A DNA stretch of 64,000 nt from Calditrichaceae bacterium (GCA_050178385.1 JBFXGD010000001.1:5802-69801), one strand, 5' to 3'. Shown: positions 20,157-51,900, counted from the stretch's first letter. A program made the numbers and translations. Notes: generated by a model from the sequence alone, not told the origin.

Positions 20157-20187
20157 TTTTCTGTTACTATGATTTCGGAAAAGCTGG

Positions 20188-22897: not shown

Positions 22898-23065
22898 ATT
22901 CATCATAATAATGTATGCTTTAATGTTTTGGAACAGAATAATATTATATCATTCCGATCGTGTGTAAGGCTGATGATGTATAGATTGGCAATAAATGGGA
23001 ATTGAAAATTATGATAATCATTTTTGAGTTACGATCAACAAAAGAAAATATATCAGTTTTCCATA

Positions 23066-24016: not shown

Positions 24017-24019
24017 AAT

Positions 24020-26169: not shown

Positions 26170-26215
26170 AACCGAAATTAAAAATAGTAAACATTAATGG
26201 AATAATTGCTGGAGA

Positions 26216-27910
26216 ATGGATTTGAAAAAACTATTTATTGTGCTGGTTCTGCTGATAAATCTCTCGGTTTATGCCGGTAATCCGGTAAGCGTGCCCATTA
26301 ATCATCCAATTTATGATTTTTTTGATCGTATGGAAACGATGGGGTATCTAAATCGCCTTTTGGACGGAATTCGGCCATACAGCCGTGGCCGGGCGGCGGA
26401 TATACTGCTGCAGCTTAATGAGAAACGCGACGAATTAACTTCAATCGATAGACGAAGACTGGATGATTATTTACTGGATTTCAGATTTGAAATAGATCGT
26501 TCTCAAAAATATTCGGAAGCGCCTGATGGCAAAAACTGGTATTCGGTGTTTTCCGGATGGGGAACTTTCAAGAAAGACTTTAACCGGTTCTTTAAACAGA
26601 ATCACCCCGAGGAAGAAAATCACGTATTTCTGTGGGAATCGGGAGGAAGTAACTTCTATTTTGATTATCAGCAAAATTTTACATATGAACAGAGATCGGA
26701 TGATGTGACGAGGGATGCCAATTGGCAGACCTACCAGGTGCGGGGGTTGATTGATGATAATTTCGGGTATGCCGTGGAGGTTAGTCTTTATGCCTTGCGC
26801 GGTGACGAGTCCTATGTCGGGGAACATCCAATACTCAAAGGCGCGTGGAGCAAGCTTCATGAAAATGAAACCAGATATGCGGACAGAACCGGCGGGGAAC
26901 TGGCCTGGCATAACAGGTATTTTGATTTTACCTTTGCTCAGCAGGAAATTGAATGGGGGCCGGGTGAATCAGGTAAATTAACACTTTCCAATAACCCGGA
27001 GCACTATCCCTACGTGAGTATTTCGAAGGATTGGGGATGGGGGAAGTTTATCGCTTTGCACGGGAAATTACAATCGTTTCCCGAGGACACAAGTACTAGC
27101 GGGGAACCGCTGTATCCGGATAAGTGGCTGGCCGCTCATCGTCTTGAGTTTGCTCCCTGGAAAAGTTTGACTATTGGTATCAATGAAAATTTTATTTACG
27201 GCTACCGATACGCGGACTGGTCCTATCTGGTGCCTTTTAACTTTTACAGAGCAACACAGCATAATTTGCGCGACCGCGATAATGCCACAATTTCCATTGA
27301 TTTCGAATGGGTTGCGCGCTCGGGAAGCAAACTCTACGGTACGTTATTTCTGGATGAGTTCAAACGAAGTAAATTATTCACGGACTGGTATGGAAATAAG
27401 CACGCCTTTTTAATCGGTTTGCATCAGACTGATCCGTTCGGGATCGAAAACTTATCTGTGCGGTTGGAATACACGGCCATTATGCCATGGGTATATACGC
27501 ATAAGTATCCCATTAACAGTTACACAACTGATTATCAATCTCTTGGTCACTGGGCCGGTCCTAATTCTGAAGTGTATTATGCCCATGTGTCCAAAGACTG
27601 GCACCAGCGTTTAACAACCGGATTTATATTTCAGCAGTATAAACATGGCGATAATTATGAGAATGAAAATATCGGCGGTGATATTCTGCTGGGGCACAAT
27701 GATTTGTTGGGTGAACAGGAAAGCGCGAGGGAAACCCGGGATTTTCTTGAAGGTAATTTGACCACAGAACAAAAGTATGAAGCATATCTAAAATATGAAG
27801 TTTTTAATGATCTGTTTTTAACATTCGTCTATGATCATTTTGATATAGAAAGCGGCGGAACCAAAACCAAATTAGATGAATTTCATTTTGGGTTTGAATT
27901 ACGATATTAG
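26216..27910 (+). CDS. outer-membrane beta-barrel protein, probably capsule-assembly Wzi family
   Basis: Signal peptide, then an N-terminal helical block (HPIYDFFDRMETMGYLNRLL..IRPYSRGRAADILL) as I remember for Wzi-family proteins. Aromatic-rich alternating beta-strand pattern, and a C-terminus FGFELRY ending in an aromatic residue. At 564 aa it is longer than classical Wzi. Confidence 0.5.
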   Translation: MDLKKLFIVLVLLINLSVYAGNPVSVPINHPIYDFFDRMETMGYLNRLLDGIRPYSRGRAADILLQLNEKRDELTSIDRRRLDDYLLDFRFEIDRSQKYSEAPDGKNWYSVFSGWGTFKKDFNRFFKQNHPEEENHVFLWESGGSNFYFDYQQNFTYEQRSDDVTRDANWQTYQVRGLIDDNFGYAVEVSLYALRGDESYVGEHPILKGAWSKLHENETRYADRTGGELAWHNRYFDFTFAQQEIEWGPGESGKLTLSNNPEHYPYVSISKDWGWGKFIALHGKLQSFPEDTSTSGEPLYPDKWLAAHRLEFAPWKSLTIGINENFIYGYRYADWSYLVPFNFYRATQHNLRDRDNATISIDFEWVARSGSKLYGTLFLDEFKRSKLFTDWYGNKHAFLIGLHQTDPFGIENLSVRLEYTAIMPWVYTHKYPINSYTTDYQSLGHWAGPNSEVYYAHVSKDWHQRLTTGFIFQQYKHGDNYENENIGGDILLGHNDLLGEQESARETRDFLEGNLTTEQKYEAYLKYEVFNDLFLTFVYDHFDIESGGTKTKLDEFHFGFELRY

Positions 27911-27978
27911 GCAATAATGTTTCATCGATTATCAAAAAAGCGTAATTTCATGTGTACCGGGATAATATGTAAGAATAT

Positions 27979-30411: not shown

Positions 30412-30417
30412 GATATC

Positions 30418-32505
30418 ATGTCAAGTCAGAAAACAGTAATCAGTATAATTATCGTTAACTACAATGTGCGGGATTTTCTTGAGCAGGCGTTGATTTCAGT
30501 AAAACGGGCGCTTGAGAACATTACATCAGAGATTATTGTTGTCGATAATGCATCCATCGACGGATCTGTACAGATGCTCCAGAATCGATTCCCTGATGTA
30601 AAAATTATCGAAAACGATAAAAATTTGGGCTTTTCCGCCGCTAACAATCTCGCGTTGAAAGATGCCCATGGGGAATACATTGTATTATTGAATCCGGATA
30701 CGTTGGTTCAGGAAGACACCTTTAAAAAGCTGATTCAATTTTTTGAACAAAATCCTGATGCTTCGGCCGCCACTTGTAAAATTTTGAATCCTGACGGGAC
30801 TTTCTCTATAGACTGCCGCCATAGTATTCCCACACCAATGACGGCATTCTGGAAACTGATAGGATTTAATCGTCTTTTTCCAAAAAGTAAAATATTCGGC
30901 CGTTATAACCTGACCTGGCTTGATGAAAATCAAATCTACCAGGTTGAGGCAATATCAGGTTCATTCATGATGATAAAGAGCGGGGTTGTTCAGAAAGTCG
31001 GGTTGCTGGATGACCGGTTTTTTATGTATTGCGAAGACATTGATTACTGTCACCGGATAAATCAGTCCGGCGGAAAAATCTATTATGTTCCGACATCTCA
31101 GCTAATCCACTATAAAGGAGAAAGTACAAAGAAAAACAATCTGGATTATGTCGTCACGTTTAACAAATCGCTCTATTTGTTTTACAAAAAACACTATCAG
31201 CAAAAATATATCTATCCCTTTAAATGGTTAATTCTTCTTGGAGTCATCTTGAGGGGGATGATGATCTTTATCAGAAATTTTGCCGCCGCTTTTTATCCAT
31301 TTATGCTGGATTTGCTGATAATGAACGGAACGTTGTTTTTAAGTTTCTATCTCCGTTATGAAATTAGAGGAGATTTTACTCTCCATGATTTTTTCAGTGA
31401 CTATATTATTATTAACTTAATAACATCGGCCGCCTACTTCATCTCATCCCTGTTTTTCGACAGTATGGACAGAGACAGATATTCTTTGATTAAAGTGTTT
31501 AAGGCCAACCTGCTCACCTATACGTTTGTCTCAGCATTGACATTTTTTTTCAAACAGTTTGCCTTCTCGAGGCTTGTAGTGCTTTTTACGGCATTTATCA
31601 GCACATCGTTGATGCTTATCTGGAGGATCGGTCTTAGATATTACGGCAGAAAGTATTCGGAAGTTCTCAGAAAAGATTTGTTCGCAAAACGGGCGCTGAT
31701 AGTAGGATTGGATGATGATACGCAAAACCTGCTTATAAAATTAAATAAACGCGTCGATTCTTCAATTGAAATTGTCGGATTGATTTCTCCTGACCGGAAA
31801 GATATCGGCAAAAAAATCGCGGGGTTTCCAATCGTCAGCTCCATACAACAACTACCTGAATTTTTAAGACTTAACAAGATTAACCTGGTCATTTTCTCCA
31901 CACATAATATTTCATATAAATCCATTTTAACCGCCATGGCAAATGTTGAAAACTCTCATATCGAGTTTAAAATGGTACCCGGACATCTGGAATTTATGGT
32001 AGGTAAATCAAATATTGAGCGGCTTGACAATATGCCGCTGGTGGATATAGAATACGCGTATGGTAAACTTTTCAACCGCTTTGTAAAAAGATCTGCCGAT
32101 ATTTTTACATCGTTTATAATCCTGATCTTTCTTCTGCCTGTCGCTTTGCTTTTCCTGCCGTTTAAAATTGGAAAAATAGGCAGAAAACAGGTCCATCAAG
32201 GTAAGAATAATATCAAAACCATTTTGTGGGACCCCCATAAAGGATTTTTCCGCTTTATTTTAAATCTGATAAATATATTATCCGGAAAAATATCACTGGT
32301 GGGCGCGCCGATGGAGAAGGATGGGAAACGGGAGCAGCAGTTTGATTATAAACCCGGGCTGACGGGGATCATTCAAATCAATAAAAACAAGATTACGGAT
32401 GATCAGATATTTGAGAATTTTGAACTGCATTATCTCAAAAATCAGAATTTTTTGCTCGATGTCGAAATTATATACAGGGCGCTATTTTTAAGAAAAGAAA
32501 GATGA
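30418..32505 (+). CDS. fusion: GT2 glycosyltransferase (N) + WbaP-like 4-5TM/Rossmann/vestigial sugar-transferase module (C)
   Basis: aa 1-250: ISIIIVNYN, VVDNASIDGS, LLNPDTLV and FFMYCEDIDYCHR. aa 260-695: TM segments, ALIVGLDDDTQNLLIKL..IVGLISPD, FKMVPGHLEFMVG and KRSADIFTSFIILIFLLPVALL. The tail is shortened, with LVGAPME in place of LVGPRPE, followed by KPGLTGIIQI. Confidence 0.7.
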   Translation: MSSQKTVISIIIVNYNVRDFLEQALISVKRALENITSEIIVVDNASIDGSVQMLQNRFPDVKIIENDKNLGFSAANNLALKDAHGEYIVLLNPDTLVQEDTFKKLIQFFEQNPDASAATCKILNPDGTFSIDCRHSIPTPMTAFWKLIGFNRLFPKSKIFGRYNLTWLDENQIYQVEAISGSFMMIKSGVVQKVGLLDDRFFMYCEDIDYCHRINQSGGKIYYVPTSQLIHYKGESTKKNNLDYVVTFNKSLYLFYKKHYQQKYIYPFKWLILLGVILRGMMIFIRNFAAAFYPFMLDLLIMNGTLFLSFYLRYEIRGDFTLHDFFSDYIIINLITSAAYFISSLFFDSMDRDRYSLIKVFKANLLTYTFVSALTFFFKQFAFSRLVVLFTAFISTSLMLIWRIGLRYYGRKYSEVLRKDLFAKRALIVGLDDDTQNLLIKLNKRVDSSIEIVGLISPDRKDIGKKIAGFPIVSSIQQLPEFLRLNKINLVIFSTHNISYKSILTAMANVENSHIEFKMVPGHLEFMVGKSNIERLDNMPLVDIEYAYGKLFNRFVKRSADIFTSFIILIFLLPVALLFLPFKIGKIGRKQVHQGKNNIKTILWDPHKGFFRFILNLINILSGKISLVGAPMEKDGKREQQFDYKPGLTGIIQINKNKITDDQIFENFELHYLKNQNFLLDVEIIYRALFLRKER

Positions 32506-36030: not shown

Positions 36031-36067
36031 GTCAGGCGATACAAACTCTGTTTCTGCCTGACTTTTT
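36031..36067 (+). terminator. Rho-independent terminator of upp, embedded in the last codons of the convergent GGDEF gene
   Basis: GTCAGGC (36031-36037) / GCCTGAC (36056-36062) with an inner AAAC/GTTT mini-stem, then TTTTT (36063-36067). The same bases read on the minus strand encode ...AKKSGRNRVCIA-stop. Confidence 0.55.
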
Positions 36068-37675
36068 CGCTTTATAGAGAGCCTGATCAGCGCGTTCGAT
36101 AAGATCCTCCATATCGGTTCCGTCATCAGGAAAATTAGCCAGACCGATACTGACTGTCAGTTTTCCAAGAGGCTGATATTGCTGCAGGTTGAATTCGAAA
36201 TCTTCTATTAAGTTGTGAAGCTTTTGGGCAATCCAGATGGCGTTCTGTTTATCCAGACCCGGAAGTATAATTACAAATTCTTCCCCTCCGTATCTCGCTA
36301 CCGTATCAATACTCCTGGTGTTCTCTGACAGAATTAGGCTGACCTGACAGAGAATTTTATCTCCTTCGGGATGCCCGTGACGGTCATTGTAATCCTTAAA
36401 ATGATCGATATCGATGATCAAAAGGGAAAATGGGGTTCTGAAACGCTTTCCGCGATTCATTTCCCGTTCCAGCTGCTGTATAAAATAGCGGTAATTGTAT
36501 ATTTTCGTGAGCCCGTCGGTGATTGCCTGTTGTTCCTTTATCTTATACAATTTCATCAATTTATGATAGAGAATCATATTTTCATAAATAATTCCGATGG
36601 TTTGAATAAAGGATTTTAGAATCCGTACTTCGTATGTTGCAAAATCCTGTTCTGTTTTACCCTTATCTATAAAGATTAAATAACGTTTTGGCATCTGCAG
36701 CTCGAGTTTCTCGTCGGACGTCACATTTGACGCGATATTCGCAAATATTTCAGTGGTCTCTTTTTTTACAGCCAGATTAGATAGATTGCCTAAAATAAAT
36801 GACTCTGTCTGCAAATTTTTTGCGAGGCTCAAGAGTGATGGTTCAAGGATTTCAGAGAGATTTTTGATCCAGATAATTCCGCCGTCGTTTTTAAGATATG
36901 TCAAAAATTCAGGCTTATATTTAAAACTTTTCTTATGAATTGATGGACCCGTGACGCCTTCGAATGAAAAGGGGATGAGCCTCCTCTTAACAGTGTCAAG
37001 CTCAAAAGAAATACACCTGTCAACCTTAAAACCCTCAATAATTTTTTCAGGCAGTATTTTCAGAAGCGCTGCCGGATCTCTTTGTGTCCTCAAAAAATTA
37101 GCCACGTTGTTAAGATAAAATAACCGGTCATTGTACCGGGCAAGATCCTGATGTGACTCATACAATTCTTTGTTGACCTTTGTAAGATTTTCATTGAGAG
37201 ATTCCAATTCAAGAAGTTTTCTGCGTAATTTCTCAACAAGCTGGACATTATACTTCTGTAAAAATTTCTTTTCTTTTTCAGGTGAGATAAAATCTTTTTT
37301 ACCGGAAAGATATTCTTCGATCTTAAATAAAAACTCGGTGACATTTATAGGTTTTGAGATATAACCGTCGCACCCCGCGGCGAGAGTTAAGTTCCTGGCA
37401 TCACGATGCATTTCTCCTGTCAGGGCTATTATGGGTGTGTCCTTGATATCCGACAGACTTTTTAAATGGGTAGTGACCTCGTATCCCTGCATATCGGGCA
37501 GTCGTAAATCCACAAGAATTAAATCCGGTTTATGTTCAATGGCCATCTGGATACCATCCAGACCCCGGGCAGCCTCATAAAACTGATAGCCTTTATACCT
37601 GATGATATCAGCCATTAATGATCTGGTTTCCGGATCGTCCTCGATATAGAGTATTTTTTTTGTGTCGATACTCAT
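36032..37675 (-). CDS. response regulator with REC, GAF-like and GGDEF (diguanylate cyclase) domains
   Basis: REC: ILYIEDD, LILVDLRLPDMQG, ALTG and KPI. A coiled-coil and a GAF-like middle region follow. The GGDEF domain has an intact RYGGEEF and the I-site RSID five residues upstream. Confidence 0.85.
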   Translation of the reverse strand: MSIDTKKILYIEDDPETRSLMADIIRYKGYQFYEAARGLDGIQMAIEHKPDLILVDLRLPDMQGYEVTTHLKSLSDIKDTPIIALTGEMHRDARNLTLAAGCDGYISKPINVTEFLFKIEEYLSGKKDFISPEKEKKFLQKYNVQLVEKLRRKLLELESLNENLTKVNKELYESHQDLARYNDRLFYLNNVANFLRTQRDPAALLKILPEKIIEGFKVDRCISFELDTVKRRLIPFSFEGVTGPSIHKKSFKYKPEFLTYLKNDGGIIWIKNLSEILEPSLLSLAKNLQTESFILGNLSNLAVKKETTEIFANIASNVTSDEKLELQMPKRYLIFIDKGKTEQDFATYEVRILKSFIQTIGIIYENMILYHKLMKLYKIKEQQAITDGLTKIYNYRYFIQQLEREMNRGKRFRTPFSLLIIDIDHFKDYNDRHGHPEGDKILCQVSLILSENTRSIDTVARYGGEEFVIILPGLDKQNAIWIAQKLHNLIEDFEFNLQQYQPLGKLTVSIGLANFPDDGTDMEDLIERADQALYKAKKSGRNRVCIA

Positions 37676-37838
37676 GGATCTCTGATTATTTTGATGGTCT
37701 GGATATGACAGCCGAACAAGAATGCAAACAATTTTACCGGAATTCGGATTTTCAATTCAAGAAAGTAAACTATCCTGGTTAAAAAATCAAGCAGGATCGC
37801 TTGCAGGGGACATTTATTTATTAAATATCCCTTGTTGC

Positions 37839-39755
37839 TCAGAGATGTTTGCAAATCAACAAAGTAATATCGTCTGCCGGATTTTCAAATTCAGCAAAAT
37901 CTCTCAGTGCATTAGTGATTTCTTGTTTAATCTGATGCACTGACATCTCTTGATTGGATTTAACGATTTCAATAATGCGGTTTTCTCCAAATTCTTCCTC
38001 AAGATGATTCATGGTTTCGCTGACGCCATCGGTATAAGCGACAAGAATATCACCTTGTTTAAATTCAACCTCTTCCTGGATATAATCCTGATCGCCTATA
38101 AAACCGAGAACGATACCGCCTTTGGTGAGATGTTTAACCTCTCCGCCCGCACTGATTAGTATCGGGGGATTATGTCCGGCATTGGTATATATCACCTTAT
38201 GATTTTCCATGTCTATAATACCATAGAACAGTGTGGCGTATTTGCCTTCTATTGTGGTCTGACAGAGCAGATTGTTTAATCGGTTGACCACATCGCAGGC
38301 GGTCATAAAAGTCTTGTTTTGCGTGCGGAAGCCCGCGAGTATCAAAGTCATCATCAGTGCCGCTGGCGCGCCTTTGCCGGAAACATCACCGATAATAAAA
38401 CCGAGAGTAGTTTCATTGAATTTGATAACATCGTAGAGATCACCGCTTACGAGTTTACTTGGTATGTTCTCGGCCGTCAGCCGGAGATCTTTTAGTTTCG
38501 GAAGCTGTTTTATAAGTAAATCCCGCTGAACCATACTGGCGTTTATCAACTCATGTTCATAAGCTTGTTTTGCGAGTCTTATATCAAGCTGGCGGGCGTT
38601 GTGTATTGCTATAGCCGCCTGATTGGCAAAAATATTCAGTATGTCCACCTGGTTTTCGTTAAAGTAATTTAATTTGTTACTTTCCATGCATATGACCCCA
38701 AGAACAGTTTCTTCAAATATCATCGGAATAGAGATCTGGGATTTTGTATTTTTACGTATTTCGAGATAATGCTCTGACATACGAACATCATCAATGATGT
38801 CAATTTTTTTTGATTCAACGACCCAGCCGCAGGCGCCCTGGCCGACTTTAAGATGAAGCCGGTCGGCTACTCCTGAATCATAGCCCCGGCTGCTTGTGTT
38901 TAATAGATTTTTACCTGATTTATCCACAAGGAAAATGGCGGCGGCATCAAAATTAATCAATGACTGAAGAGAATTGAGTATAAAATCGAGAATATCTTTG
39001 GTATTTAAAGATGAAAGGATGCGCTGACTGACTTCAATCAGTTTACGTGTTTCAAAGTTTTTTTTCTCCAAATCAACAAAGAGTCCGGTGTTTTCAAGTA
39101 TTAATCCGCCCTTACGCTGTATTTTTTGGAATAGCAACCGGGTCGGTTTGTCCCGGTAAAAACGAACTTTTTTAATATTCACCAATAGAAAAGCAAATGT
39201 CTGATTATGGCCATGAAAAGGCAGCAGCGCGTATAATTTGGACTTTTTAAATTCAAGGGCAAAGGATTCCGGCAGCCGCAAGGTGGTGATATAATCTTCA
39301 ATCAGAAGGGTTTCCGGCTGGATTGGTCTGAAGTATGAAGCGTCAAGACCAAGAGTCATCAACTCACCGTCATTCAGATTACCCGAGAAAGCCGGATAGA
39401 ATTTGTTGTTCTCGAAGATATAAAAGGCATAAGCGACATCCCTGAATATTTTCTTAAACGAATCTTCAAGCTCATGCGTCACCTCGTGGTAGCGGAAGGA
39501 GCGGTTTAGCTTCATATTCAGGGTTTCGAGAGTCTGCTGAACATGATTGAGCAGATAATAGTAGTGCTTGTTTACAAATCGTCTGACAATCAGCTTTAAT
39601 TTATCATGAAACAGGATAATCAAGGCCAGTGTAATGGCTATCGGCGGCAGAAAAGACAGGTTGTCAGCTGCTGCCTGTACCAGATAAAGGAGTAATGTTA
39701 AGAGGAGATATATCAGATAGAGAATTATTGACTCAATAATATCATATTTCGACAA
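37839..39755 (-). CDS. membrane-anchored GAF + PP2C/SpoIIE-type serine phosphatase (RsbU-like)
   Basis: Two N-terminal TM segments, an unassigned region of about 200 aa, a GAF domain (ILDFILNSLQSL..AAAIFLVD), then a PP2C domain (GDLYDV, GDVSGKGAPAALMM, YTDGVSE, DDITLL). TTG start 5 nt behind AAGGAG. Confidence 0.8.
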   Translation of the reverse strand: MSKYDIIESIILYLIYLLLTLLLYLVQAAADNLSFLPPIAITLALIILFHDKLKLIVRRFVNKHYYYLLNHVQQTLETLNMKLNRSFRYHEVTHELEDSFKKIFRDVAYAFYIFENNKFYPAFSGNLNDGELMTLGLDASYFRPIQPETLLIEDYITTLRLPESFALEFKKSKLYALLPFHGHNQTFAFLLVNIKKVRFYRDKPTRLLFQKIQRKGGLILENTGLFVDLEKKNFETRKLIEVSQRILSSLNTKDILDFILNSLQSLINFDAAAIFLVDKSGKNLLNTSSRGYDSGVADRLHLKVGQGACGWVVESKKIDIIDDVRMSEHYLEIRKNTKSQISIPMIFEETVLGVICMESNKLNYFNENQVDILNIFANQAAIAIHNARQLDIRLAKQAYEHELINASMVQRDLLIKQLPKLKDLRLTAENIPSKLVSGDLYDVIKFNETTLGFIIGDVSGKGAPAALMMTLILAGFRTQNKTFMTACDVVNRLNNLLCQTTIEGKYATLFYGIIDMENHKVIYTNAGHNPPILISAGGEVKHLTKGGIVLGFIGDQDYIQEEVEFKQGDILVAYTDGVSETMNHLEEEFGENRIIEIVKSNQEMSVHQIKQEITNALRDFAEFENPADDITLLICKHL

Positions 39756-39837
39756 AACTACTCCTTTGTTCTGGGCGTAAATATAGAGAAAACCCGGATT
39801 ATATTCAATAATTGATGGGTGGCGAACAAAGATTCTT

Positions 39838-41610
39838 TCAGGCTGATATATCTAATTTTAGGGTTAAAATGGTGACATCATCGTATTTGGTTGGATCACC
39901 AGAATACTCTGTCAAAACATCATAAAGTTTCAGGTTTAGATCATGACTGTTGAATGCCGCCATATTTTCCTGGAAAAAACGGATCAGGGCCGGTTCGTCA
40001 AAGGGTTCTTCATCATCATTCATTGCTTCGGTGACGCCGTCGGTGAACATTGTCAGACATAGGGTATCTTTAAGATCCGCTTTCCCTGTCTCATAATGTA
40101 CATCCGGCATCATACCGAGAATTATTCCACCCTTATCCAAAGCGCTATAACTCCCGTCATGCTTAAACAAGTAGGGAGGATTGTGGCCCGCGTTAACATA
40201 TTCCAGCTGATGGTTTTTAGTGTTTAATTTTGCTATAAAAAAAGTGATGTATTTATCGACCGATGTATTTTTATAGATCAGATTATTTAGTTTGGATGTG
40301 ATTTCATCCAATTCATATTGTTCACCAGCCAGGGTCTGTAAACCCGCTTGCAGATTGGACATCAGGAGCGAGGCGGGCATCCCTTTTCCGGAAACATCCG
40401 CAATGGTCAGTATGTATACATCATGACTTATTTTGATGATATCGAAATAATCTCCGCCCACATGTTTACTTGGTATGTTAAGGCCATGGATATCGTACCC
40501 ACTGATCACCGGCATGGATTTGGGTAAGAGCTGTACCTGAATTTTCTTTGCCAGGTTAAGTTCTTCTTCCATACGTTTTTTTTCCAGCATCTCCTGGAAA
40601 AGACGCGCGTTTTCTAAGGATATGATGGCGATGTTTGCCAGTGTCGACATAAAATCGATATTGGATTTGCTGAAGGGGCCTTTATCTAATTTTTCACCCA
40701 GAAATATAAATCCGCGAACCTGATCCTGATTTACCATAGGCGAAATTACACGAATCCCCAGATCATATAGTTCGGAATATTGATTTTGATCTTCGGAGAG
40801 AATCATAGGGGTACTGAAGTCGGGCAGATTTCGGCACTGATCGATGCATTTCCTGATGGCGGCATCATTAAATAATGATCCCTTTCTGTAGACGATCTCC
40901 AGTTTGCCGGCCACGTGCTGGGCAACAAAAAACTGGTTAACCAGCATTTGTCCCATGAGTGAATAGGACAGCTGCCGGAGAATTAGGTCCGTGTCAAAAA
41001 GCCGGTTTAGCTCGTTCCCTATTTCGAATAAGGTATTCAGTTCCTGAATTTTTTGATCAAGCTGCCTGTTTACCTGATTCAGCTCCTCAAATACCAGGGC
41101 ATTTTCAATAGATGGCACAGCGATATTTGAAAGCGACGACAAAAATTCAATTTCCTCATCGGTATAATCTGATTTAACAAGCCGGGCTCCATAAGCGACG
41201 ATTCCTTTAAATTCACGCATGGAAGTCAACGGAAGAATCAATTCAATCTTGAATTTTTTAAAGAAGTCGATCCACTCTTCATCACCCTCATACCGGCTGA
41301 TCAGAAAAGGGTGTTTTGGTAAAGATGAGATAGATATTTCCTTGTCAATCAGCGAAAACGGCAGACCTTTCAGCGTCTCGACGCGGTAAACATCGGATTT
41401 TTGCTGAAATAAAACAAGACCCCTGCCGATCGCCATTCTTCCCATTGGCACAAGCAGAATGGTATCAAGAATAGATTTCAGATTCAGCGATGAGTTGAGA
41501 GTCTGGCTTATTTCAAATAGTGCGGAGAGTTCGAGCAGCCTTTTATCCAGTTCATCTGAATTTAATTCGTTTTGATGGCGGTGCCGAAAACTGTTAAGAT
41601 GGTTATTCAT
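39838..41610 (-). CDS. soluble double-GAF + PP2C/SpoIIE-type serine phosphatase
   Basis: Two GAF-like blocks, then PP2C (GGDYFDI, ADVSGKGMPASLLMS, FTDGVTE, DDVTILTL). The ATG is 2 nt after the stop of the RsbW-like gene. Confidence 0.8.
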   Translation of the reverse strand: MNNHLNSFRHRHQNELNSDELDKRLLELSALFEISQTLNSSLNLKSILDTILLVPMGRMAIGRGLVLFQQKSDVYRVETLKGLPFSLIDKEISISSLPKHPFLISRYEGDEEWIDFFKKFKIELILPLTSMREFKGIVAYGARLVKSDYTDEEIEFLSSLSNIAVPSIENALVFEELNQVNRQLDQKIQELNTLFEIGNELNRLFDTDLILRQLSYSLMGQMLVNQFFVAQHVAGKLEIVYRKGSLFNDAAIRKCIDQCRNLPDFSTPMILSEDQNQYSELYDLGIRVISPMVNQDQVRGFIFLGEKLDKGPFSKSNIDFMSTLANIAIISLENARLFQEMLEKKRMEEELNLAKKIQVQLLPKSMPVISGYDIHGLNIPSKHVGGDYFDIIKISHDVYILTIADVSGKGMPASLLMSNLQAGLQTLAGEQYELDEITSKLNNLIYKNTSVDKYITFFIAKLNTKNHQLEYVNAGHNPPYLFKHDGSYSALDKGGIILGMMPDVHYETGKADLKDTLCLTMFTDGVTEAMNDDEEPFDEPALIRFFQENMAAFNSHDLNLKLYDVLTEYSGDPTKYDDVTILTLKLDISA

Positions 41611-41612
41611 AA

Positions 41613-42056
41613 CTATGCGGATTTTTTGTTTAAGTATTTTATCATAGTGACCTGGTTTTTTGTGCCCGGATTAAATGTGTAATTTACCTCGTCCATGATC
41701 GTCTTCATCAGATAAATACCCAAACCCCCCATTTTAGCTTCATGAATGTATTGTCGTAAATCGGGTTTTGGAAGTTTCGAAGGATCAAATCCTTTGCCTG
41801 TATCGGAGATGATAATTTCAATTTTTTCGTTATCCAGATATACAATAATGTCTATCATACGCCTTGAATCAAATTTATGCGCATGCTTAATGACATTTGT
41901 GCAGGCCTCATCTACGGCAAGAGCAATCTGATCCGAAGTGGACGGATCGAATCCCGTCTTCAACGCCAGGCGGTTTACGAATTCTCGGATGATCTCCAGA
42001 TTATCTGTCATACTTGGAAACCGGAGTTTGAATTTTTGTTTTCGACTTTTTTTCAT
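41613..42056 (-). CDS. anti-sigma-factor-type serine kinase (RsbW/SpoIIAB family, HATPase_c_2)
   Basis: N-box AVDEACTNVIKHA, G1 box SDTGKGF and G2 box GGLGIYLM. Its 147-aa length is typical of the family. Confidence 0.8.
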   Translation of the reverse strand: MKKSRKQKFKLRFPSMTDNLEIIREFVNRLALKTGFDPSTSDQIALAVDEACTNVIKHAHKFDSRRMIDIIVYLDNEKIEIIISDTGKGFDPSKLPKPDLRQYIHEAKMGGLGIYLMKTIMDEVNYTFNPGTKNQVTMIKYLNKKSA

Positions 42057-42099
42057 ATCGGACTCTAATTAGGAATTCGAATTAATTTTACAAAAGTTG

Positions 42100-42453
42100 C
42101 TATTTAGCCTGAAAAAATTTTGATTTAGCCTGCGTTTCTTCATCGAAAATCTCGTAAAGTGATGGAAATCCAAGTAAGTCAAAAACTTTATATACTTTTG
42201 GTGATAAATTTGATAATTTAATATCACCTCCTTTTTCACGTATTTCTTCGATAAAACCCATAAATACTCCCAGGCCCGCACTGCTTATATAATCAAGCTT
42301 ATGAAGGTTCACAATGATATTTACCCTTTCCTCCTTTAATAATCGATCGAGCGCATCCTCAAATTTGGGAGCTGTATGGGCATCAAGAAATCCAGCCAGA
42401 TGTAAGACTGAAATTTTTTCCTGATCATTTCGTGAAATTTCAAAACCACTCAT
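42100..42453 (-). CDS. STAS-domain anti-sigma-factor antagonist (RsbV/SpoIIAA family)
   Basis: 117 aa. LDYISSAGLGV contains the conserved phosphorylatable Ser context. Typical STAS length and beta-alpha pattern. Confidence 0.8.
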   Translation of the reverse strand: MSGFEISRNDQEKISVLHLAGFLDAHTAPKFEDALDRLLKEERVNIIVNLHKLDYISSAGLGVFMGFIEEIREKGGDIKLSNLSPKVYKVFDLLGFPSLYEIFDEETQAKSKFFQAK

Positions 42454-42551
42454 TAATTACCTCCGGGACTGTAATAGGATAATTTATTCGAATAGCCTCC
42501 GCGGGGCGGGGGATACTTCTATCTGAATTTTTATCCCTATTATAAGCAATC

Positions 42552-44633
42552 TTAAATTTTTATCAAAATTAATGTTAAATCATCATGTAAGTTCTGGCCA
42601 TCCATGAATCCAAGAATCTCATCTATTATTTTATCTTTAATTTCTTCAACGCTCAGGTGATTATTATTCTTTACAACGTTACAAAGCCGTTCTTCTCCAA
42701 ATTCATCGCCGTTGCCTGTCCTCGCTTCGGAAAGGCCGTCTGTAAAAAACACGAGGATATCATTCGGACAAAGCTTTACTTCCTGTTCTTCCAGCGTTTT
42801 ATCAAAGATGTCGCCATTATCAAGCCCAACGGCGACACCGGATGGCTGGAGTAATGATGTCCGGTCTTCATTCGAATTATAATATAAAACAGGGCAGTGT
42901 CCCGCGCGGGCGAATCTCAATATGTTTGTTTTTGCATCCAGATGAGCGGCCAGAAGACTTATGAATGTCTTTTTCTCAAGTGACTCGTATAATATTTTAT
43001 TTGTATTTATCAGAATTTCTTTCGGAGATGTCTGATTTCTGATGAGGGATTGGATAATTCCCTTTGTTTCTGCCATATAGAACGCGGCGGATGTCCCTTT
43101 ACCGCTCACATCACCGATTACCAATCCGAGTTCTGAATCGGGATATGTATAAAAATCGTAATAGTCACCGCCAACTTCATAGGCAGTGATCGTTAGTGTA
43201 TCAATTTGAAAATTCCCGACTTGCGGAATTTCCTGCGGCAGTAGTTTGAGCTGAACCTCACGGGCTATTTTTAGTTCCTGTTCCATCCGTTCACGTTCGA
43301 ATGAATTTCGGAGAAGTTTTACATTTTCGAGAGCGATGGCGGCTTGATTGGCATAAGCCTCCAGCATGTTTACATCATCCGGGTCAAAGCCGAATACATG
43401 GGTTTTAACCGCGTACAATATTCCCATAACCTGACCATTGGCGCCAAGAAGCGGGGCGCCGGCGAACGACCCGATTCCGTTTTTCAGAATTTTGATGTTC
43501 TGATATTCCTTGTTCTTGGTCAGATCATTCATTATGAGGGGTTTTTTATTTAGCAGAATTTGATTGCTTATTCTTTGATTGGTTTTTGAATTAAATTCCA
43601 GGAGCTCATCACCGTTTATGTGTTTTGATGCCGCGACATATAAATTTTCAGATCGCTCATCAAATAGTTCCAGCCATGTATAGGATGATTCTGTGACCTC
43701 GGCGGTCATTTCTGTTACCAATTGGACTAATTTTTCATGATCGTATTCGACCGACATAACTCTGCTCAAATGATGCAGGGATGAAACCTCTTTCATTTTG
43801 CGGTCAAACACCCTGGCTGTAGGGAGATGCAGCAGAAAATTCAAATTGGCAAAAATGGAATAAAACACAAGAAAATACCAGCTGATATTTGTAAAAACGG
43901 CTAATGAGAGACTATGGGCAGGTACAGAAACCTTGAATGCGAGATCGAAGAGGTATAAAACCGCCCAGATAAGCACAAATGAGATAAGAAAATAGTAATA
44001 TTTTTCTTTTCGTGATAAATAAGTGATCCAGCTGTTCCTGGTGGATAGCCCGGCAAGGAATATTAATGTCCCTAAAAATGCAGCATTGTTAAATTTGCCG
44101 TTACCGGTAAAGCTAAGGTCGAGCGGCGTTTCAAAGACAACGGTTAAAATCATTGTTGCCAATGTTCCCGCGAGCGCGATGGCAATATAAAGATTTGTTC
44201 TTTTTCTGAATTTATAATGAAGCAGATTTTTAATACTGATCAGGATAGGCAACAGCAGAAGTATTGCCGCGAGGGAAACCAGGTTTGAATAAATCAGACT
44301 GAGAAAGGTTTCAGGTTGCTGCGGAAATGTAGCCGGAGAGAAGCCGGGTGAAAGAGCCTGTTTCAGCACGATCACGAGAATGTATAATATCGCTAAATAT
44401 TTTATTATATTTTTTAGATTGGTTTGAACATCCGAAACCGAAAAAAAAGATTTTCTCTTTAGATAAAGGTAATATATATAAATAGTTAAAACAGAAAAGC
44501 TTTCATGAAAATAATTCCACGGCTGGATGTTTAAAGAACTGAAATACTGTATGATATCATAAGCAAACGTGATTAGGCTATCGAATACGATAATTCCAAT
44601 AAGAACTTGCGTTGGCAAATGTATCCGTTTCAT
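42552..44633 (-). CDS. polytopic-membrane (about 10 TM) GAF + PP2C/SpoIIE-type serine phosphatase
   Basis: The N-terminal ~290 aa are almost entirely TM segments. A GAF domain follows, then PP2C (GGDYYDF, GDVSGKGTSAAFYM, FTDGLSE, DDLTLILI). Its start overlaps the upstream lipoprotein stop (ATGA at 44633-44630). Confidence 0.8.
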   Translation of the reverse strand: MKRIHLPTQVLIGIIVFDSLITFAYDIIQYFSSLNIQPWNYFHESFSVLTIYIYYLYLKRKSFFSVSDVQTNLKNIIKYLAILYILVIVLKQALSPGFSPATFPQQPETFLSLIYSNLVSLAAILLLLPILISIKNLLHYKFRKRTNLYIAIALAGTLATMILTVVFETPLDLSFTGNGKFNNAAFLGTLIFLAGLSTRNSWITYLSRKEKYYYFLISFVLIWAVLYLFDLAFKVSVPAHSLSLAVFTNISWYFLVFYSIFANLNFLLHLPTARVFDRKMKEVSSLHHLSRVMSVEYDHEKLVQLVTEMTAEVTESSYTWLELFDERSENLYVAASKHINGDELLEFNSKTNQRISNQILLNKKPLIMNDLTKNKEYQNIKILKNGIGSFAGAPLLGANGQVMGILYAVKTHVFGFDPDDVNMLEAYANQAAIALENVKLLRNSFERERMEQELKIAREVQLKLLPQEIPQVGNFQIDTLTITAYEVGGDYYDFYTYPDSELGLVIGDVSGKGTSAAFYMAETKGIIQSLIRNQTSPKEILINTNKILYESLEKKTFISLLAAHLDAKTNILRFARAGHCPVLYYNSNEDRTSLLQPSGVAVGLDNGDIFDKTLEEQEVKLCPNDILVFFTDGLSEARTGNGDEFGEERLCNVVKNNNHLSVEEIKDKIIDEILGFMDGQNLHDDLTLILIKI

Positions 44634-45895
44634 TCAATAAATACCTTAAAAGGATAAATAGCGTTTGAGAAAACTCCGATCAGTGTAGAATCACTCCGAA
44701 AATGTTTCACCAGCCGGGTGCCCGTGTCGCTCACTATGAGATTGCCGTTTTTCGGATTAATTCTCAAGTCTGACGGAGAAATAAAACCTATACGTTGACT
44801 GAGACGTAATCCGTTGTATGAAAGTTGCATTATTTCTGAATTTATATCATTAAAAATTATTATCCAAATAGTCTGATTTTTTTCATCAATTCTGAATTTT
44901 CCAAGATTATCCGATCTGTAAATTTCTTCGGCTTCCCCGCTCGCAAGATCATATTTATACAGAATATCTTCGACCGGAGTCTGATCGGTAAGAAAAAGAA
45001 TTTGGTTTGCCTGGTCTATCTGAAAAAATTCCGGATCCATAAGGGTTTGATTTTCAAGAGCTGAAAGCGAATATTGTAAAACGCCCTCCAGATTATAAAC
45101 AAGTATTTGGTGATTCCTGTCATCGAGTATAAAAAGAAGTTTTTCTTCTGAAAGCTCAATCTGTATTGGATTCCCGAGATTTGTCGCCACTAAGGCTGCT
45201 GTCCCTGTCACAGGGTTGATCTCATATAGTTTTCCTGAAGAGTCAGTCAGCCAGAAGCTTTGGTTGAATCGATCATAAAGACAATCAAAGGGATTTTCAA
45301 TGCCGAATTCACTGAAAAGCACTTCCCCGTTTTCCAGATCAAAAATATCGAAACTGTTTATTGTCGGATAAGTTGCCATCGCGCGGTTGTGGTCATGGTC
45401 GAATGCAAGCGCCTCAGGGATCCACACGCCATAGACAATTAAATTGACTGTCTTCAGGTCATACGCGAGATTGAGAAATGTTTCAAGGCCCCACCTGTCG
45501 ATCAGCCATATATCTCCGGGTCCGGCCATGACCTCGACAATATTTGTTGGCGGAGAATCGGAATTTTCACCAATCAATGTCAGATAATAACTGTACTTGA
45601 TATCGTATTCAATATCAGTGTCCTGATATGACGTTTGGTTTTTTAAAAATGAAGATAAGAGGGTGAACTGATTTTCAAATTCAGTTTTTTTGTACAATTT
45701 GTAACCAGTAAAATCAACCGTTTGCGGCGGTCTCCATCTAATCTGCACCGTAGAATCGGCAGTTGAGACAAAAAGGTTTAAATCTATATTAGTTATACCG
45801 CTGCCGGGGTCAAATATATTGTCTTTATCCCTGTCTGAACAGCCGGTCAGAATGACTGTCACAAGCAGGTAAATTATTATACTAAGATATTTCAC
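44630..45895 (-). CDS. lipoprotein with an Fn3-like domain and a beta-propeller-like repeat region; function unknown
   Basis: Lipobox VILTGC-SD after a hydrophobic signal sequence. Fn3-like block (VQIRWRPPQTVDFTGYKLYKK..YSYYLTLIG). The remainder shows repeated beta-strand blades with LxD/Y patterns (NHL/YVTN-like by eye). Confidence 0.55.
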   Translation of the reverse strand: MKYLSIIIYLLVTVILTGCSDRDKDNIFDPGSGITNIDLNLFVSTADSTVQIRWRPPQTVDFTGYKLYKKTEFENQFTLLSSFLKNQTSYQDTDIEYDIKYSYYLTLIGENSDSPPTNIVEVMAGPGDIWLIDRWGLETFLNLAYDLKTVNLIVYGVWIPEALAFDHDHNRAMATYPTINSFDIFDLENGEVLFSEFGIENPFDCLYDRFNQSFWLTDSSGKLYEINPVTGTAALVATNLGNPIQIELSEEKLLFILDDRNHQILVYNLEGVLQYSLSALENQTLMDPEFFQIDQANQILFLTDQTPVEDILYKYDLASGEAEEIYRSDNLGKFRIDEKNQTIWIIIFNDINSEIMQLSYNGLRLSQRIGFISPSDLRINPKNGNLIVSDTGTRLVKHFRSDSTLIGVFSNAIYPFKVFIE

Positions 45896-48963: not shown

Positions 48964-51900
48964 ATGTATTGGAAAATTCGTTCAACCGGTGTTTACTGGT
49001 ATAATATTCTGCTTGTCTTATTCGCGTATCTGACTATCACCTATTCTCAAACGATCCCTTTGCGCGTTTACTCCATTGAAGAAGGCCTTATACAAACGCA
49101 GGTACAGACCATTACCCAGGATCCCGATGGATACTTGTGGATCGGAACCAAGGACGGCGTATCTAAATTTGATGGCCTCCATTTTTATAATTACAGCAAA
49201 AATAGCGGATTAGCCGAAAACTTTGTATTGACCTCCATTTGCGATAAAAATGGCAATATTTGGTTCGGACATTTTAGCGGTAATCTGAGTGTTTTTGATT
49301 ACAGGGAAAACACCTTTAGATCACATTCGCTCAATGATAAACTCCCCAGCAGTCCCATCACCGGTCTCTACATCGATCCTGCCGACAGACTCTGGATAGC
49401 CACCCTGGAAAAGGGATTGTTCTATGCTTCGGGAGATTCACTCATTAATGTTTCGGAACAGTTAAATATTAATTTTGGGACGATTCAGAGGCTCTTCGCG
49501 GATAAGGAAAATAATATCTGGATTGCTACTAAAAAAGGCGTCGTCACCATCAGTTTCGATGATACCAGTTCTCTTGAAACAATGAAAATGCGTTTTTATA
49601 CAGAAATGGATGGTCTTGCTGATGATGGCATTCTTGCAATCTGCGAAGATAGTGATGGCTTCATATGGTTAGGAACCTCAAATAACGGTGTTCTTAAGTT
49701 CAGGAGAGATATAAAGACCGGCGATCTCTATGATCTGAAAAAAATAAACAAAAACGATGGTTTGCTGTCGGATCAGATAAATGTAATATTTGAGGATTCG
49801 AAAAAGAATGTATGGCTTGGTACGAACAGTGGCGGAGTTTCAAAGTACAAGCCCGGAAGCGCCAATAAAAACGAAGCGATAGCCTGCACTATTACCCCTG
49901 CTCAAGGACTTGGGCATCTGAATGTAAGCGCGATCTTTGAAGACAGGGAGGGTAATATATGGATTGGAACGGATAATGGTATTACTCAATATCGGGGTGA
50001 GCGCTTTGAGATGTTTGGAGCAGCCGACGGATTGTCAAATAAATCGGTTTGGGCGGTTTATGAAGACAGTCAGCACAGAATCTGGCTGGGAACGGAAGAC
50101 GGAATAACCAGAATCAGCGGTATCTATGATCACCCTCGCCAACTTAAAATTAGAAATTACAAGATGGCGGACGGACTTCCCACCCAGATGATTGTATCCA
50201 TTATTGAGGATAAATTCGGCCGGATCTGGGCGGGGACAGAAAAAGCAGGAATTGCCGTTATTGATCCCATAACAAATAATATCACTATCCTTTCTGAATC
50301 AGACGGACTGCCAAGTAACTTTATTTTATCCATGACAGTTGATTCGGACAAGAATATCTGGGTAGGAACGGCCTTGGGAGGCCTGGTAAAATGCGAGCTT
50401 CCTGAAACGCGCCGGCCCGGCGGTAAAATTTTAAAAAACCTAAAAAATTATACAACCGATGATGGTCTTTTTTCAAATAACGTCTACGTGGTCAGTGCTG
50501 GCCGGAACGGCAACATCTGGATCGGTTCTGAAGATATGGTTCTCACACGTTGGAATGGCCGGGAATTTAACAGATTTTCAATGGACAGGAGACCCAATAT
50601 CTCCCATATCACTTCGCTGTCAGAAGATGATCTCGGTAATATATGGTTTGGCACGACCAGTGGCGGAATTTTTGAATTTGACGGTGAAAAAATATCGAAG
50701 ATATCTTTGCAGAATATACTCGATGATAAAATAATTTATGCCGTCAAGCATGATGACTCGGGTAATCTCTGGATTGCAGCCACATCAGGAGTTTATAAGT
50801 ATAACAGTAAGGATTCAACCTTATTGCACTACGGCAAGCATGAGGGCTTTCTGGGTATTGAGTCTAATGAAAATGCGGTTGCCCGGGATCACGAAGGAAA
50901 TCTCTGGTTTGGTACAATTTCCGGGGCGATTAAATATAATCCTGATAAAGATCAGATAAATAAGCTGCCTCCGCAGATAAAAATCACGGATGTTAAAATT
51001 TATTTCAAAGAAACTCCGGATATACGTGAATCTAAACTGCAGTATAATCAAAATCATCTGACATTTAATTTTATCGGAATTTGTCTTTCAACACCGGAAA
51101 AGGTTCGATACCGTTACTTTCTGGAAGGATTTGATTCAGAATGGTCGCCGGTTACCTCGGATAATCGCGCTACTTACTCCAATTTGCCACCCGGTGAATA
51201 TGTTTTTAAGGTAAGTGCAGTCAATAATGATGGAATCTGGACCAAAGAGCCGGTTAGCTATGCTTTTGAAATATTGACCCCATTCTGGAAGACCTGGTGG
51301 TTTATAGGCCTGGGTTTGATGACAATTCTATTTGGCGCGGTTATTTCACATAGAAGAAGAGTTTATCAGTTTGAAAAACAAAACTCCCTGCTTGAGTTGA
51401 AAGTGGATCACCGGACAGCTCAGCTGAAGAAGGAGAAGGAGAAAGTTGAATTCGCGCTTGAAAAATTAAACAGGCAGGAAAATCAATTACAAAAAATTGC
51501 TGAAAACGCCACTCTGCTGCTCAGAAATCCATATTACGTGCAGTCGATCCGCGAAGCTCTTCAGGTCATCGGCGATACATCAGGTGTGGATCATATTTAT
51601 ATATTCCAAAATCAGTCCACTCTCAATGAAAAAGTGTCGGTCCGGTTTAAAATGCATTTTAAATGGGATAAAAATGAGGATCCTGGAGTTGGAGAACAAC
51701 AGGCCTATAAAATGCAGATTTTTGATGATACTGATTTATTCAAAATTTATGAACTTCTAAAAAATTCGGAGTTGATCACAGACCGTTATCCTGCTTTTAC
51801 TCTTTCCCAGGATTCAAAAAAAGCAAAAGTCTCCCGGCTGGCTATTCCCGTAACCATTAGTAAACAGTTCTGGGGATTTATTATGCTGGATGATTCAAAT

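Follow-up and report, generated by a model that had tools for sequence, protein, structure and literature searches.

Partner switches that are not linked to a sigma factor gene are common in genomes, and few of them have a known output. Here we describe a candidate of this kind in a 64,000-nt stretch of DNA from a Calditrichaceae bacterium, hereafter referred to as the window, in which seven genes at positions 36032-45895 encode a lipoprotein, three phosphatases of the PP2C type, a STAS protein, an RsbW-type serine kinase and a diguanylate cyclase. We tentatively read the first five of these genes, in the direction of transcription, as a partner switch that integrates several inputs and acts on a target encoded at another site of the genome, the cyclase being an accessory; in our estimation this reading falls slightly short of being probable. 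The closest described systems are introduced below and compared with the window, followed by the evidence on the switch proteins, their conservation and their possible outputs.

In Bacillus subtilis, the RsbU/RsbP-RsbV-RsbW-sigmaB switch combines a single-domain STAS protein that carries a conserved serine, an RsbW-type kinase, and more than one PP2C input with differing sensors, and the STAS gene directly precedes the kinase gene. These features recur in the window, and RsbW is the closest solved relative of its kinase. Unlike in B. subtilis, the gene after the kinase gene encodes a GAF-GAF-PP2C phosphatase and not a sigma factor, and the sensors are GAF domains, an eight-transmembrane (8TM) domain and a lipoprotein, whereas those of B. 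subtilis are the RsbU N-domain or PAS. For the RsbU-RsbV1/V2-RsbW switch of Chlamydia trachomatis, the proposed target is the primary sigma factor, which is encoded elsewhere (PMC8256260). This switch shares with the window a membrane-sensor PP2C and the lack of a dedicated alternative sigma gene alongside, but it has one phosphatase and two STAS proteins, against three and one, respectively, in the window, which also encodes a lipoprotein partner and, next to the switch, a cyclase. In the RsbK-RsbY system of Bacillus cereus, RsbY is a REC-PP2C protein (PMC9912610). This architecture is absent from the window; it is shared by a REC-PP2C protein of ~381 residues that is encoded directly after the GAF-GAF-PP2C gene in KSB1-type relatives.

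Other described switches act on diguanylate cyclases. In SiaABCD of Pseudomonas aeruginosa, the cyclase is activated by the switch protein in its unphosphorylated form (PMC7647112, PMC8457831). As in the window, the genes for a membrane-sensor PP2C and a kinase are found together with those for a phosphorylatable STAS-like protein and a diguanylate cyclase. However, SiaC is a DUF1987 protein that is phosphorylated on threonine, whereas the STAS protein of the window is canonical; the Sia system has one phosphatase in place of three, SiaD has neither a REC nor a GAF domain, the cyclase of the window is dispensable for the conserved core, and the window proteins score far under the Sia cutoffs. 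In the HptB-HsbR-HsbA system of Pseudomonas, with FlgM and HsbD, and in BgrR-BgrV of Sinorhizobium meliloti, the phosphorylation state of the STAS protein picks its partner (PMC5085249, PMC8256260, PMC8457831, PMC13438883). Both resemble the window in having a diguanylate cyclase encoded nearby and no dedicated sigma gene in the cluster. In HsbR, REC, PP2C and kinase are fused and fed by a phosphorelay, whereas the window encodes a free-standing kinase and three GAF-PP2C proteins, and its REC domain sits on the cyclase. The cyclase itself is similar to PleD and WspR in its phosphorylatable REC domain, GG(D/E)EF active site and RxxD inhibitory site (I-site), and differs from them in that its REC and GGDEF domains are separated by a coiled coil and by a GAF domain of highly divergent sequence.

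Calling of open reading frames (ORFs) recovered the seven genes at 36032-45895 as co-directional ORFs, all on the minus strand, and Pfam matches and translations confirmed the domains and motifs that had been assigned to them in an initial reading of the window from the sequence alone (hereafter the sequence-only reading). An iterative hidden Markov model (HMM) search of the window ORFs returned one sigma-70-family, one STAS, one RsbW-like, three PP2C and one GGDEF protein, in agreement with the earlier claim of a single STAS protein and a single RsbW-like kinase. Relatives were collected with the kinase alignment as the query from a set of 185,579 species, each represented by one genome, which gave 80 loci; genes in these loci were assigned by phmmer searches with the proteins of the window and with reference sigma factors.

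The STAS protein (117 residues, 42100-42453) is a single-domain protein of the anti-sigma-factor-antagonist type (Pfam STAS, E 1e-20). It scores 81.8 bits against the NCBIfam model ant_ant_sig, exceeding the cutoff of 53.45, and its best relatives in PDB are SpoIIAA and RsbV. Its translation contains the motif DYISSAGLG, of which YISSAGLG, holding the phosphorylatable serine (Ser58), is invariant in 86 of 86 core STAS proteins. The gene has a strong ribosome-binding site (GGAGG) and lies 43 bp ahead of the kinase gene (41613-42056). The latter encodes an anti-sigma-like GHKL serine kinase of the RsbW/SpoIIAB type (147 residues; Pfam HATPase_c_2, E 1.5e-30) with the motifs EACTNVIKHA, DTGKGF and GGLGIYL. 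Its N, G1 and G2 boxes (E50, N54, D85-G87-G89 and G111-G113) are invariant across 35 homologues, and invariant residues are also found outside the ATP-binding motifs (S15, T17, N19, L20, R24, P98, E106, M121 and D122).

Searched against PDB, the family profile of the kinase matches B. subtilis RsbW first (E 3.6e-25), then SpoIIAB (~5e-12) and mycobacterial RsbW (2e-4), and the remaining matches are weak and comprise only histidine-kinase-type ATPase domains. The kinase is 34% identical to B. subtilis RsbW, N-terminal region included. NCBIfam ranks the RsbW equivalogs NF003144 / TIGR01924 first as well, at scores below their cutoffs (97.3 vs 145 and 84.8 vs 155 bits), so the kinase is considered a homologue of RsbW and not an equivalog. 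Since the relatives of the kinase are RsbW and SpoIIAB, and those of the STAS protein are SpoIIAA and RsbV, an anti-sigma-type function with a target encoded elsewhere is favoured. Judged by its motifs, the locus is a predicted partner switch in most respects: a STAS protein with a serine before GLG, an adjoining intact kinase and metal-binding PP2C domains are all present, and a cognate sigma gene is absent in and next to the operon.

The three phosphatases carry the PP2C motifs GDVSGKG/ADVSGKG, (Y/F)TDG and DD(L/I/V)T in their translations and match the Pfam SpoIIE domain at E 1e-42 to 1e-47. All four metal-binding motifs are found in each paralogue; they are kept in >83% of the orthologues of every PP2C class, and in >94% for the two core classes. 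Because their PP2C domains are only 27-36% identical to one another, the three are considered old paralogues and not recent copies. The first input is an 8TM-GAF-PP2C sensor phosphatase of 693 residues (42552-44633; Pfam GAF and SpoIIE), with the catalytic motifs GDYYD, GDVSGKG, FTDGL and DDLT. About 10 transmembrane (TM) segments had been proposed for this protein; hydropathy averaged over 38 homologues corrects this number to eight conserved hydrophobic segments, which would place both the N-terminus and the GAF-PP2C part in the cytoplasm. The 8TM domain (residues 1-295, 43749-44633, minus strand) belongs to no Pfam family in any of the 38 homologues and has conserved motifs (NSFRxSWIxYLxRKEK and LFHLPTAxxFDRK), and it is therefore regarded as an uncharacterised membrane sensor domain.

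The gene preceding this phosphatase, the first of the cluster (44630-45895), was left undescribed in the sequence-only reading. It encodes an NHL-propeller lipoprotein of 421 residues with an N-terminal signal peptide or hydrophobic segment and the lipobox LTGC. In the window protein, the Pfam matches are weak (fn3, E 2.5e-4; NHL, E 3e-4), and the NHL propeller is clear in its homologues (E 2.4e-15). The stop codon of the lipoprotein gene overlaps the start of the 693-residue phosphatase gene as ATGA (4 bp), in the window and in every Calditrichota locus examined. The lipoprotein is a probable extracytoplasmic co-sensor of the 8TM-GAF-PP2C protein, translationally coupled to it. In one relative (L014, ~6100-7400) the lipoprotein gene is broken into two ORFs of 230 and 216 residues, and in another (L171, 3007-3241) it is absent, with only 233 bp between adk and the 8TM-PP2C gene, so that the lipoprotein appears dispensable or decaying in some lineages.

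The second input is a soluble GAF-GAF-PP2C phosphatase of 590 residues (39838-41610; Pfam GAF and SpoIIE), with intact PP2C motifs. Its description as a double-GAF protein holds, as hhalign clearly identifies a GAF domain in the N-terminal region (P 100%). The gene starts 2 nt past the kinase gene, and in all informative loci a phosphatase of this 590-type follows the kinase, usually after a gap of 1-4 bp. The third input is a membrane-anchored GAF-PP2C protein of 638 residues (37839-39755; Pfam GAF and SpoIIE). Two TM segments, the number given in the sequence-only reading, form a hairpin within residues 10-50; the "unassigned" region of ~200 residues is weakly GAF-like over residues 75-238 (hhalign P 41-47%, E ~2e-4). 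The presence of GAF domains in all four large proteins had further suggested a shared small-molecule cue. This suggestion found no support: identity between the GAF domains does not exceed ~31%, mostly in local alignments only, and that of the cyclase is missed by Pfam.

The best homologues of both the kinase and the cyclase belong to metagenome-assembled genomes of Calditrichota. Long contigs with a kinase homologue (57-71% identity) show the same seven genes in the same order, with rlmN and adk ahead, and the question raised earlier of whether the seven-gene order is conserved can thus be answered: the full order recurs across Calditrichota. The arrangement is far beyond chance; it recurs in species-level genomes in which the RsbW-like protein is only 51-71% identical. 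The core order, that is, 693-type phosphatase, STAS, kinase and 590-type phosphatase, was found in 86 loci of Calditrichota, KSB1-type and Ignavibacteriota genomes. Together with the NHL lipoprotein gene that may stand in front, these genes form the conserved unit, which occurs at a kinase identity of 44-71% in Calditrichota, in the KSB1-type and in genomes labelled Ignavibacteriota or Bacteroidota.

Downstream of the core, each lineage has its own genes. In Calditrichota they are the 638-type phosphatase and the cyclase; in the KSB1-type genomes (23 loci), the REC-PP2C protein of ~381 residues, often followed by a radical-SAM/B12 protein and a HAMP-GAF-PP2C protein; and in Ignavibacteriota, a PDZ-GAF-PP2C protein of ~851 residues. 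In the sister lineages, the position of the cyclase is thus held by additional phosphatases, which would serve as inputs. In a neighbour-joining tree, the kinase sequences form three blocks that coincide with the accessory sets (cyclase, REC-PP2C and ECF, the last being an extracytoplasmic function sigma factor described below), which indicates that the core was inherited vertically and that the accessories are lineage-specific. All unannotated neighbours in the 86 loci were clustered in search of a linked target, and no family spans the lineages. As a side observation, the downstream genes of the KSB1-type loci, which lie in the L017-L048 and L062 range, are exemplified by L026:12226-16765, and some of these loci have an extra PP2C gene of ~800 residues that is translationally coupled to a second NHL lipoprotein gene (L020:1914-5713).

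Within the Calditrichota clade, 18 kinase-anchored loci with downstream sequence are informative on the downstream genes. The 638-type phosphatase and the cyclase are both present in 11/18, the cyclase occurs without the 638-type phosphatase in 2/18 (L007, L008), and 5/18 have neither (L009, L011, L037, L041, L043). The cyclase is thus part of the cluster in 13/18 of these loci, and it is absent from all KSB1-type and Ignavibacteriota loci. When loci were anchored on the cyclase instead, three of five were full clusters (L089, L090 and L171, the last without the lipoprotein gene), and the other two (L087, L172) have the 638-type phosphatase and the cyclase adjacent to each other after unrelated genes, with no core nearby. 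In L087:8081-11635, from a complete 4.9-Mb chromosome (CM137749.1), the two genes are 9 bp apart and are followed by plsC-serS; in L172:7986-11626, they are 107 bp apart and are followed by upp-plsC-serS. The junction between the 590-type and 638-type genes is the site of gaps of 594-815 bp or of insertions in relatives.

Based on gene order, the seven genes are read as two juxtaposed modules, module A from the lipoprotein to the 590-type phosphatase, and module B consisting of the 638-type phosphatase, as its first gene, and the cyclase. Module A appears to be ancient and vertically inherited, syntenic with rlmN-adk. Module B appears to be specific to Calditrichota, syntenic with upp-plsC-serS and polysaccharide genes. 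On this distribution, the cyclase would stand outside the conserved unit, as an accessory and not as an ancestral or obligatory output. It is important to note that gene order is weak evidence either way, because synteny is generally strong in this phylum and the unrelated rlmN and adk are linked just as tightly.

As the sequence-only reading had noted, no sigma gene lies in or next to the cluster. The sole sigma-70-family ORF of the window encodes an ECF sigma factor (62570-63169) and is followed by a gene for a zf-HC2 protein. An iterative search of the 4,424 ORFs of loci L001-L086 found 15 sigma-70-family ORFs, and there is no sigma gene within 10 kb in the cluster of the window or in any Calditrichota or KSB1-type locus. 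Thirteen of the 15 fall in one contiguous clade of Ignavibacteriota (L050, L052-L054, L057-L059, L069, L070, L073, L077, L081 and L085; e.g., L058:5612-7507), where an ECF gene lies directly upstream of the core in the same direction. Of the other two, one is an ECF gene paired with a zf-HC2 gene (L051), and one is incomplete and lies at the end of a locus (L072). Whether the arrangement ever includes a sigma gene, another check proposed earlier, therefore has a positive answer in one clade of relatives: it does in 13 Ignavibacteriota loci, where the core is concerned, and in none of Calditrichota or of the KSB1-type.

In the Ignavibacteriota loci, the order is purA, a divergent second STAS gene, the ECF gene (~199 residues), a gene for a one-TM protein of ~430 residues, and the core; in L073, there is an overlap of 4 bp between the ECF gene and the start of the 8TM-PP2C gene. 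The one-TM protein is a membrane anti-sigma factor in L053 and L077, where the motif "LSAYLDGELS", classic for such factors, lies in an N-terminus of 85 residues. The part ahead of the TM helix is reduced to 9-39 residues (~16 in most) in ten other loci, where the sigma-binding domain has therefore apparently been lost. The ECF gene beside the core could reflect plain synteny, or an RsbW-type switch could have taken over control of the ECF sigma factor. In the latter case, the core would be an RsbW-type switch for an ECF sigma factor in one clade of Ignavibacteriota. In a term search, the 2021 ECF classification paper gave no match for RsbW, STAS or HATPase. The second STAS gene itself encodes a single-domain protein of ~113 residues with the motif KFMNSSGLG and lies beside purA (L058:5040-5378, minus strand), with equivalents in 13 loci. 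The ECF gene of the window was also considered as a relocated orthologue of the Ignavibacteriota ECF gene; this was rejected, as the identity is only 28-32% and the window protein has its own zf-HC2 partner.

With regard to sigma factors elsewhere in the genome, Caldithrix abyssi has a full flagellar gene set (PMC5317091), and sigma-28 is therefore expected in the phylum. Literature searches, and a term search of the Caldithrix genome paper, returned nothing on sigma factors or partner switches of Calditrichota.

Taking these observations together, the partner switch with a distant target would work as follows. The RsbW-type kinase would phosphorylate Ser58 of the STAS protein, and the 8TM-GAF-PP2C protein would dephosphorylate it, probably reporting an envelope or extracellular cue via the coupled NHL-propeller lipoprotein. 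The soluble GAF-GAF-PP2C protein would also dephosphorylate the STAS protein, probably reporting a cytoplasmic ligand, and the 638-residue membrane phosphatase of module B may give the same STAS protein a third input. Once dephosphorylated, the STAS protein would capture the kinase, releasing the other partner of the kinase. The data bear directly on the domains, the catalytic motifs, their conservation, the order of the genes and their distribution over lineages, whereas who phosphorylates whom, which cues the sensors read and what the target is are matters that we infer; the partner released would not be encoded in the cluster, and is most likely a sigma factor or other regulator encoded elsewhere. 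The cyclase would link the neighbourhood to cyclic di-GMP (c-di-GMP) as an accessory. The earlier proposal of a multi-input switch without a dedicated sigma factor thus survives in its first part, as none of the components or motifs is missing and the nearest 10 kb contain no sigma gene, whereas its choice of the cyclase as the output is weakened by the absence of the cyclase from 5/18 loci and its separation from the core in two genomes.

Several points weigh against this mechanism. The search for a target of the switch identified none. In well-studied systems with a sigma factor as the target, the sigma gene usually follows the kinase gene, and this slot always holds a phosphatase gene here. 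The cyclase adjoins the switch genes in the same layout as in the three published systems with a cyclase output, and it is kept on the cluster side of one downstream rearrangement (upp-plsC-serS vs a lipid A acyltransferase gene). The strong general synteny in the phylum also makes gene order weak evidence in either direction.

The cyclase (547 residues, 36032-37675) has the architecture REC-coiled coil-GAF-GGDEF, and the earlier assignment of the last gene as REC-GAF-GGDEF is correct, although its GAF domain is seen only through structure prediction. Pfam matches Response_reg and GGDEF and gives no GAF match even at E<=5, and hhalign is weak. An AlphaFold2 model of residues 180-380 (pLDDT 83, pTM 0.80) retrieves only GAF domains from PDB by Foldseek (prob 1.0, E ~5e-7), and the modelled fold thus supports the predicted architecture. 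Residues D56 and K108, the GG(D/E)EF motif (GGEEF in the window protein) and the RxxD I-site (R454-D457) are invariant in 12 cyclase orthologues. From these motifs the enzyme is predicted to be active, inhibitable by its product and controlled by phosphorylation. Its top matches in PDB are PleD and WspR, and it does not reach the PleD equivalog (234 vs a cutoff of 474 bits). Among the best 120 homologues listed, identities are 47-100%, and all source names given are those of Calditrichota. A metagenome scan seeded with the cyclase alignment, which worked from generic GGDEF and REC patterns, returned only unrelated GGDEF-domain matches and no orthologues, and is of no use for linkage statistics. 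An origin of the cyclase by domain swap from the REC-PP2C gene at the same position in KSB1-type genomes was considered and rejected: the REC domains match at only 20-38 bits, below unrelated single-domain REC proteins.

A different output is conceivable, in which the switch directly controls this adjacent cyclase: either the kinase, or one of the two phosphorylation forms of the STAS protein, would bind it and gate c-di-GMP synthesis. Control of a diguanylate cyclase by a switch is possible and of a kind already published (SiaABCD, HsbA-HsbD, BgrV-BgrR), not a new one; the pairs SiaC-SiaD, HsbA-HsbD and BgrV-BgrR provide three experimental precedents of a switch controlling a neighbouring cyclase. 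In most Calditrichota, the co-directional run of genes ends with that of the cyclase, whose product is catalytically intact by motifs, I-site included. Exopolysaccharide production is a typical target of c-di-GMP, and an 18-kb exopolysaccharide cluster lies 3.5 kb away, part of which (glycosyltransferase, sugar-transferase and Wzi genes past serS) recurs in several relatives. Nevertheless, we regard direct control of the cyclase as unlikely. The core exists without any GGDEF gene in KSB1-type, Ignavibacteriota and 5/18 Calditrichota loci, and the cyclase exists apart from the core in two genomes. The gap of 163 bp before the cyclase gene is the widest in the window cluster and holds an element that is significantly structured and resembles a terminator. 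The cyclase already carries control domains, REC and GAF, and with these intact inputs of its own it needs no switch for its regulation. Nor are the window proteins members of the Sia family by sequence (SiaD, 159 vs 290 bits; SiaA, 21-32 vs 700).

The element in this gap, a structured intergenic RNA directly 3' of the 638-residue phosphatase gene (37740-37838, minus strand; minimum free energy -25.4 kcal/mol), folds with z = -3.8, and 0/200 shuffles fold equally well. A terminator-like hairpin with a T-run (37803-37788) and a promoter-like site before the cyclase gene (37760-37731) were found here by the promoter/terminator scan. The element may be a transcript boundary ahead of the cyclase gene; this is suggestive only, since the totals of the scan are near the shuffled expectation.

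The slot after the kinase gene suggests another logic, that of RsbS-RsbT-RsbU, in which the kinase freed from the STAS protein would bind and activate the coupled GAF-GAF-PP2C phosphatase, which in turn would act on a second-tier substrate elsewhere. The cluster would then be an upstream tier, and for that reason would contain no sigma gene. In B. subtilis operons, the kinase gene of the switch is followed by that of a protein which the kinase binds (sigB, sigF or rsbU). Here, the STAS, kinase and PP2C genes follow one another in this order in every informative locus, across three phylum-level lineages, with a kinase-phosphatase junction of 1-4 bp in Calditrichota, and the second, divergent STAS gene in the Ignavibacteriota loci also speaks for this logic. 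Against this, the kinase is clearly nearer RsbW than RsbT (hhalign E 2.2e-23 over 136 columns vs 1e-11 over 111 columns), a comparison that rests on an unverified RsbT sequence without a PDB match, and in the 590-residue protein GAF domains take the place of the N-domain with which RsbU binds RsbT. We therefore consider a two-tier cascade distinctly unlikely. An extended version, more doubtful again, would take the core as not anti-sigma at all: the kinase would toggle between the STAS protein and the coupled GAF-GAF-PP2C protein (RsbS/RsbT/RsbU logic without a stressosome) in a self-contained phosphatase-activation cascade, common to Calditrichota, the KSB1-type and Ignavibacteriota, which in Calditrichota would end at the pair of GAF-PP2C and REC-GAF-GGDEF proteins and so wire Ser/Thr partner switching into c-di-GMP synthesis.

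Least probable of all, with little weight in our judgement, is that the output lies in the STAS protein, which would act on a non-sigma target, as do unphosphorylated SypA of Vibrio fischeri and BtrV of Bordetella, while the kinase and phosphatases only set its state: systems of this type have been described (review PMC8256260), conservation of the STAS protein is extreme and most lineages have no linked sigma gene, but the kinase is conserved as strongly outside its ATP-binding motifs, which suggests a conserved partner for the kinase too, and no candidate target is linked in any lineage.

Within module A, the spacer ahead of the STAS gene (42454-42551, minus strand) is 98 bp long, vs 8-39 bp in most relatives. 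The best sigma-70-like promoter match of the region, TTGATA-16-TATAAT (11/12; 42539-42566, minus strand), overlaps the 3' end of the 693-residue phosphatase gene upstream of the STAS gene; an internal promoter at this site is unproven, because the gaps there are much shorter in relatives. The spacer also contains a GC-rich element, CCCCCGCCCCGCGGAGG, amid an AT-rich context, and its predicted fold is no better than that of shuffles (z = -1.0). The upstream regions of the STAS and cyclase genes hold no conserved motif except the ribosome-binding site of the STAS gene. Rfam at gathering thresholds gives no match in the whole window, and hence no c-di-GMP riboswitch.

The genes flanking the cluster are housekeeping or unrelated genes. 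On one side are rlmN and adk, on the same strand as the cluster, followed by moxR, a hybrid histidine kinase gene and a gene for a C25 peptidase with a type IX secretion system (T9SS) tail. On the other side are upp, plsC, an aldolase gene and serS, and then the polysaccharide cluster. Two REC domains were found in the window by the iterative HMM search, one in the cyclase and one in the hybrid histidine kinase (48964-53514, plus strand). The latter, a protein of 1516 residues with a Reg_prop/Y_Y_Y propeller, PAS, HisKA, HATPase and REC, is encoded between moxR and the C25 peptidase gene; as it is absent at that position in the relatives examined (L001-L005), either it was inserted here or only this genome retained it. 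The REC domain of the cyclase could be a substrate of this kinase, yet nothing connects the two. The C25 (gingipain-type) peptidase (53728-57729, minus strand; 1333 residues) has a propeptide and a T9SS sorting tail, and its gene is followed by an ORF of 592 residues (57890-59668, minus strand) that has no Pfam match.

The polysaccharide/capsule cluster (14645-32505, plus strand) encodes a UDP-GlcNAc 2-epimerase, a Wza-like exporter, Wzz/GNVR, a glycerophosphotransferase, Wzy, several glycosyltransferases, Wzi and two large fused sugar-transferase proteins. Its serS-proximal part holds the same position in L006, L090, L171 and L172.

The single features of this locus are all known, including several PP2C inputs (RsbU, RsbP), sigma-unlinked switches (Chlamydia, Bordetella, Vibrio, Pseudomonas), switches that drive a cyclase, and REC-PP2C inputs. 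What appears to be undescribed, judging from the literature consulted and from the lack of a Pfam family for the sensor domain, is the core with an NHL lipoprotein and an 8TM sensor domain, spread over several phyla related to the Fibrobacteres-Chlorobi-Bacteroidetes (FCB) group and joined by lineage-specific accessories. The four- to five-gene core keeps its order across at least three phylum-level lineages of FCB-related bacteria, and its evolutionary structure is unusually clear. As this type of cluster is found in a metagenome-assembled relative of the cultivated Caldithrix abyssi, the target of the switch may be findable there. Melioribacter roseus and Ignavibacterium album, which are cultivated Ignavibacteriota, are also candidates, the loci described here being from their uncultured relatives. 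A result on the target would probably transfer to many, mostly uncultured, sediment bacteria.

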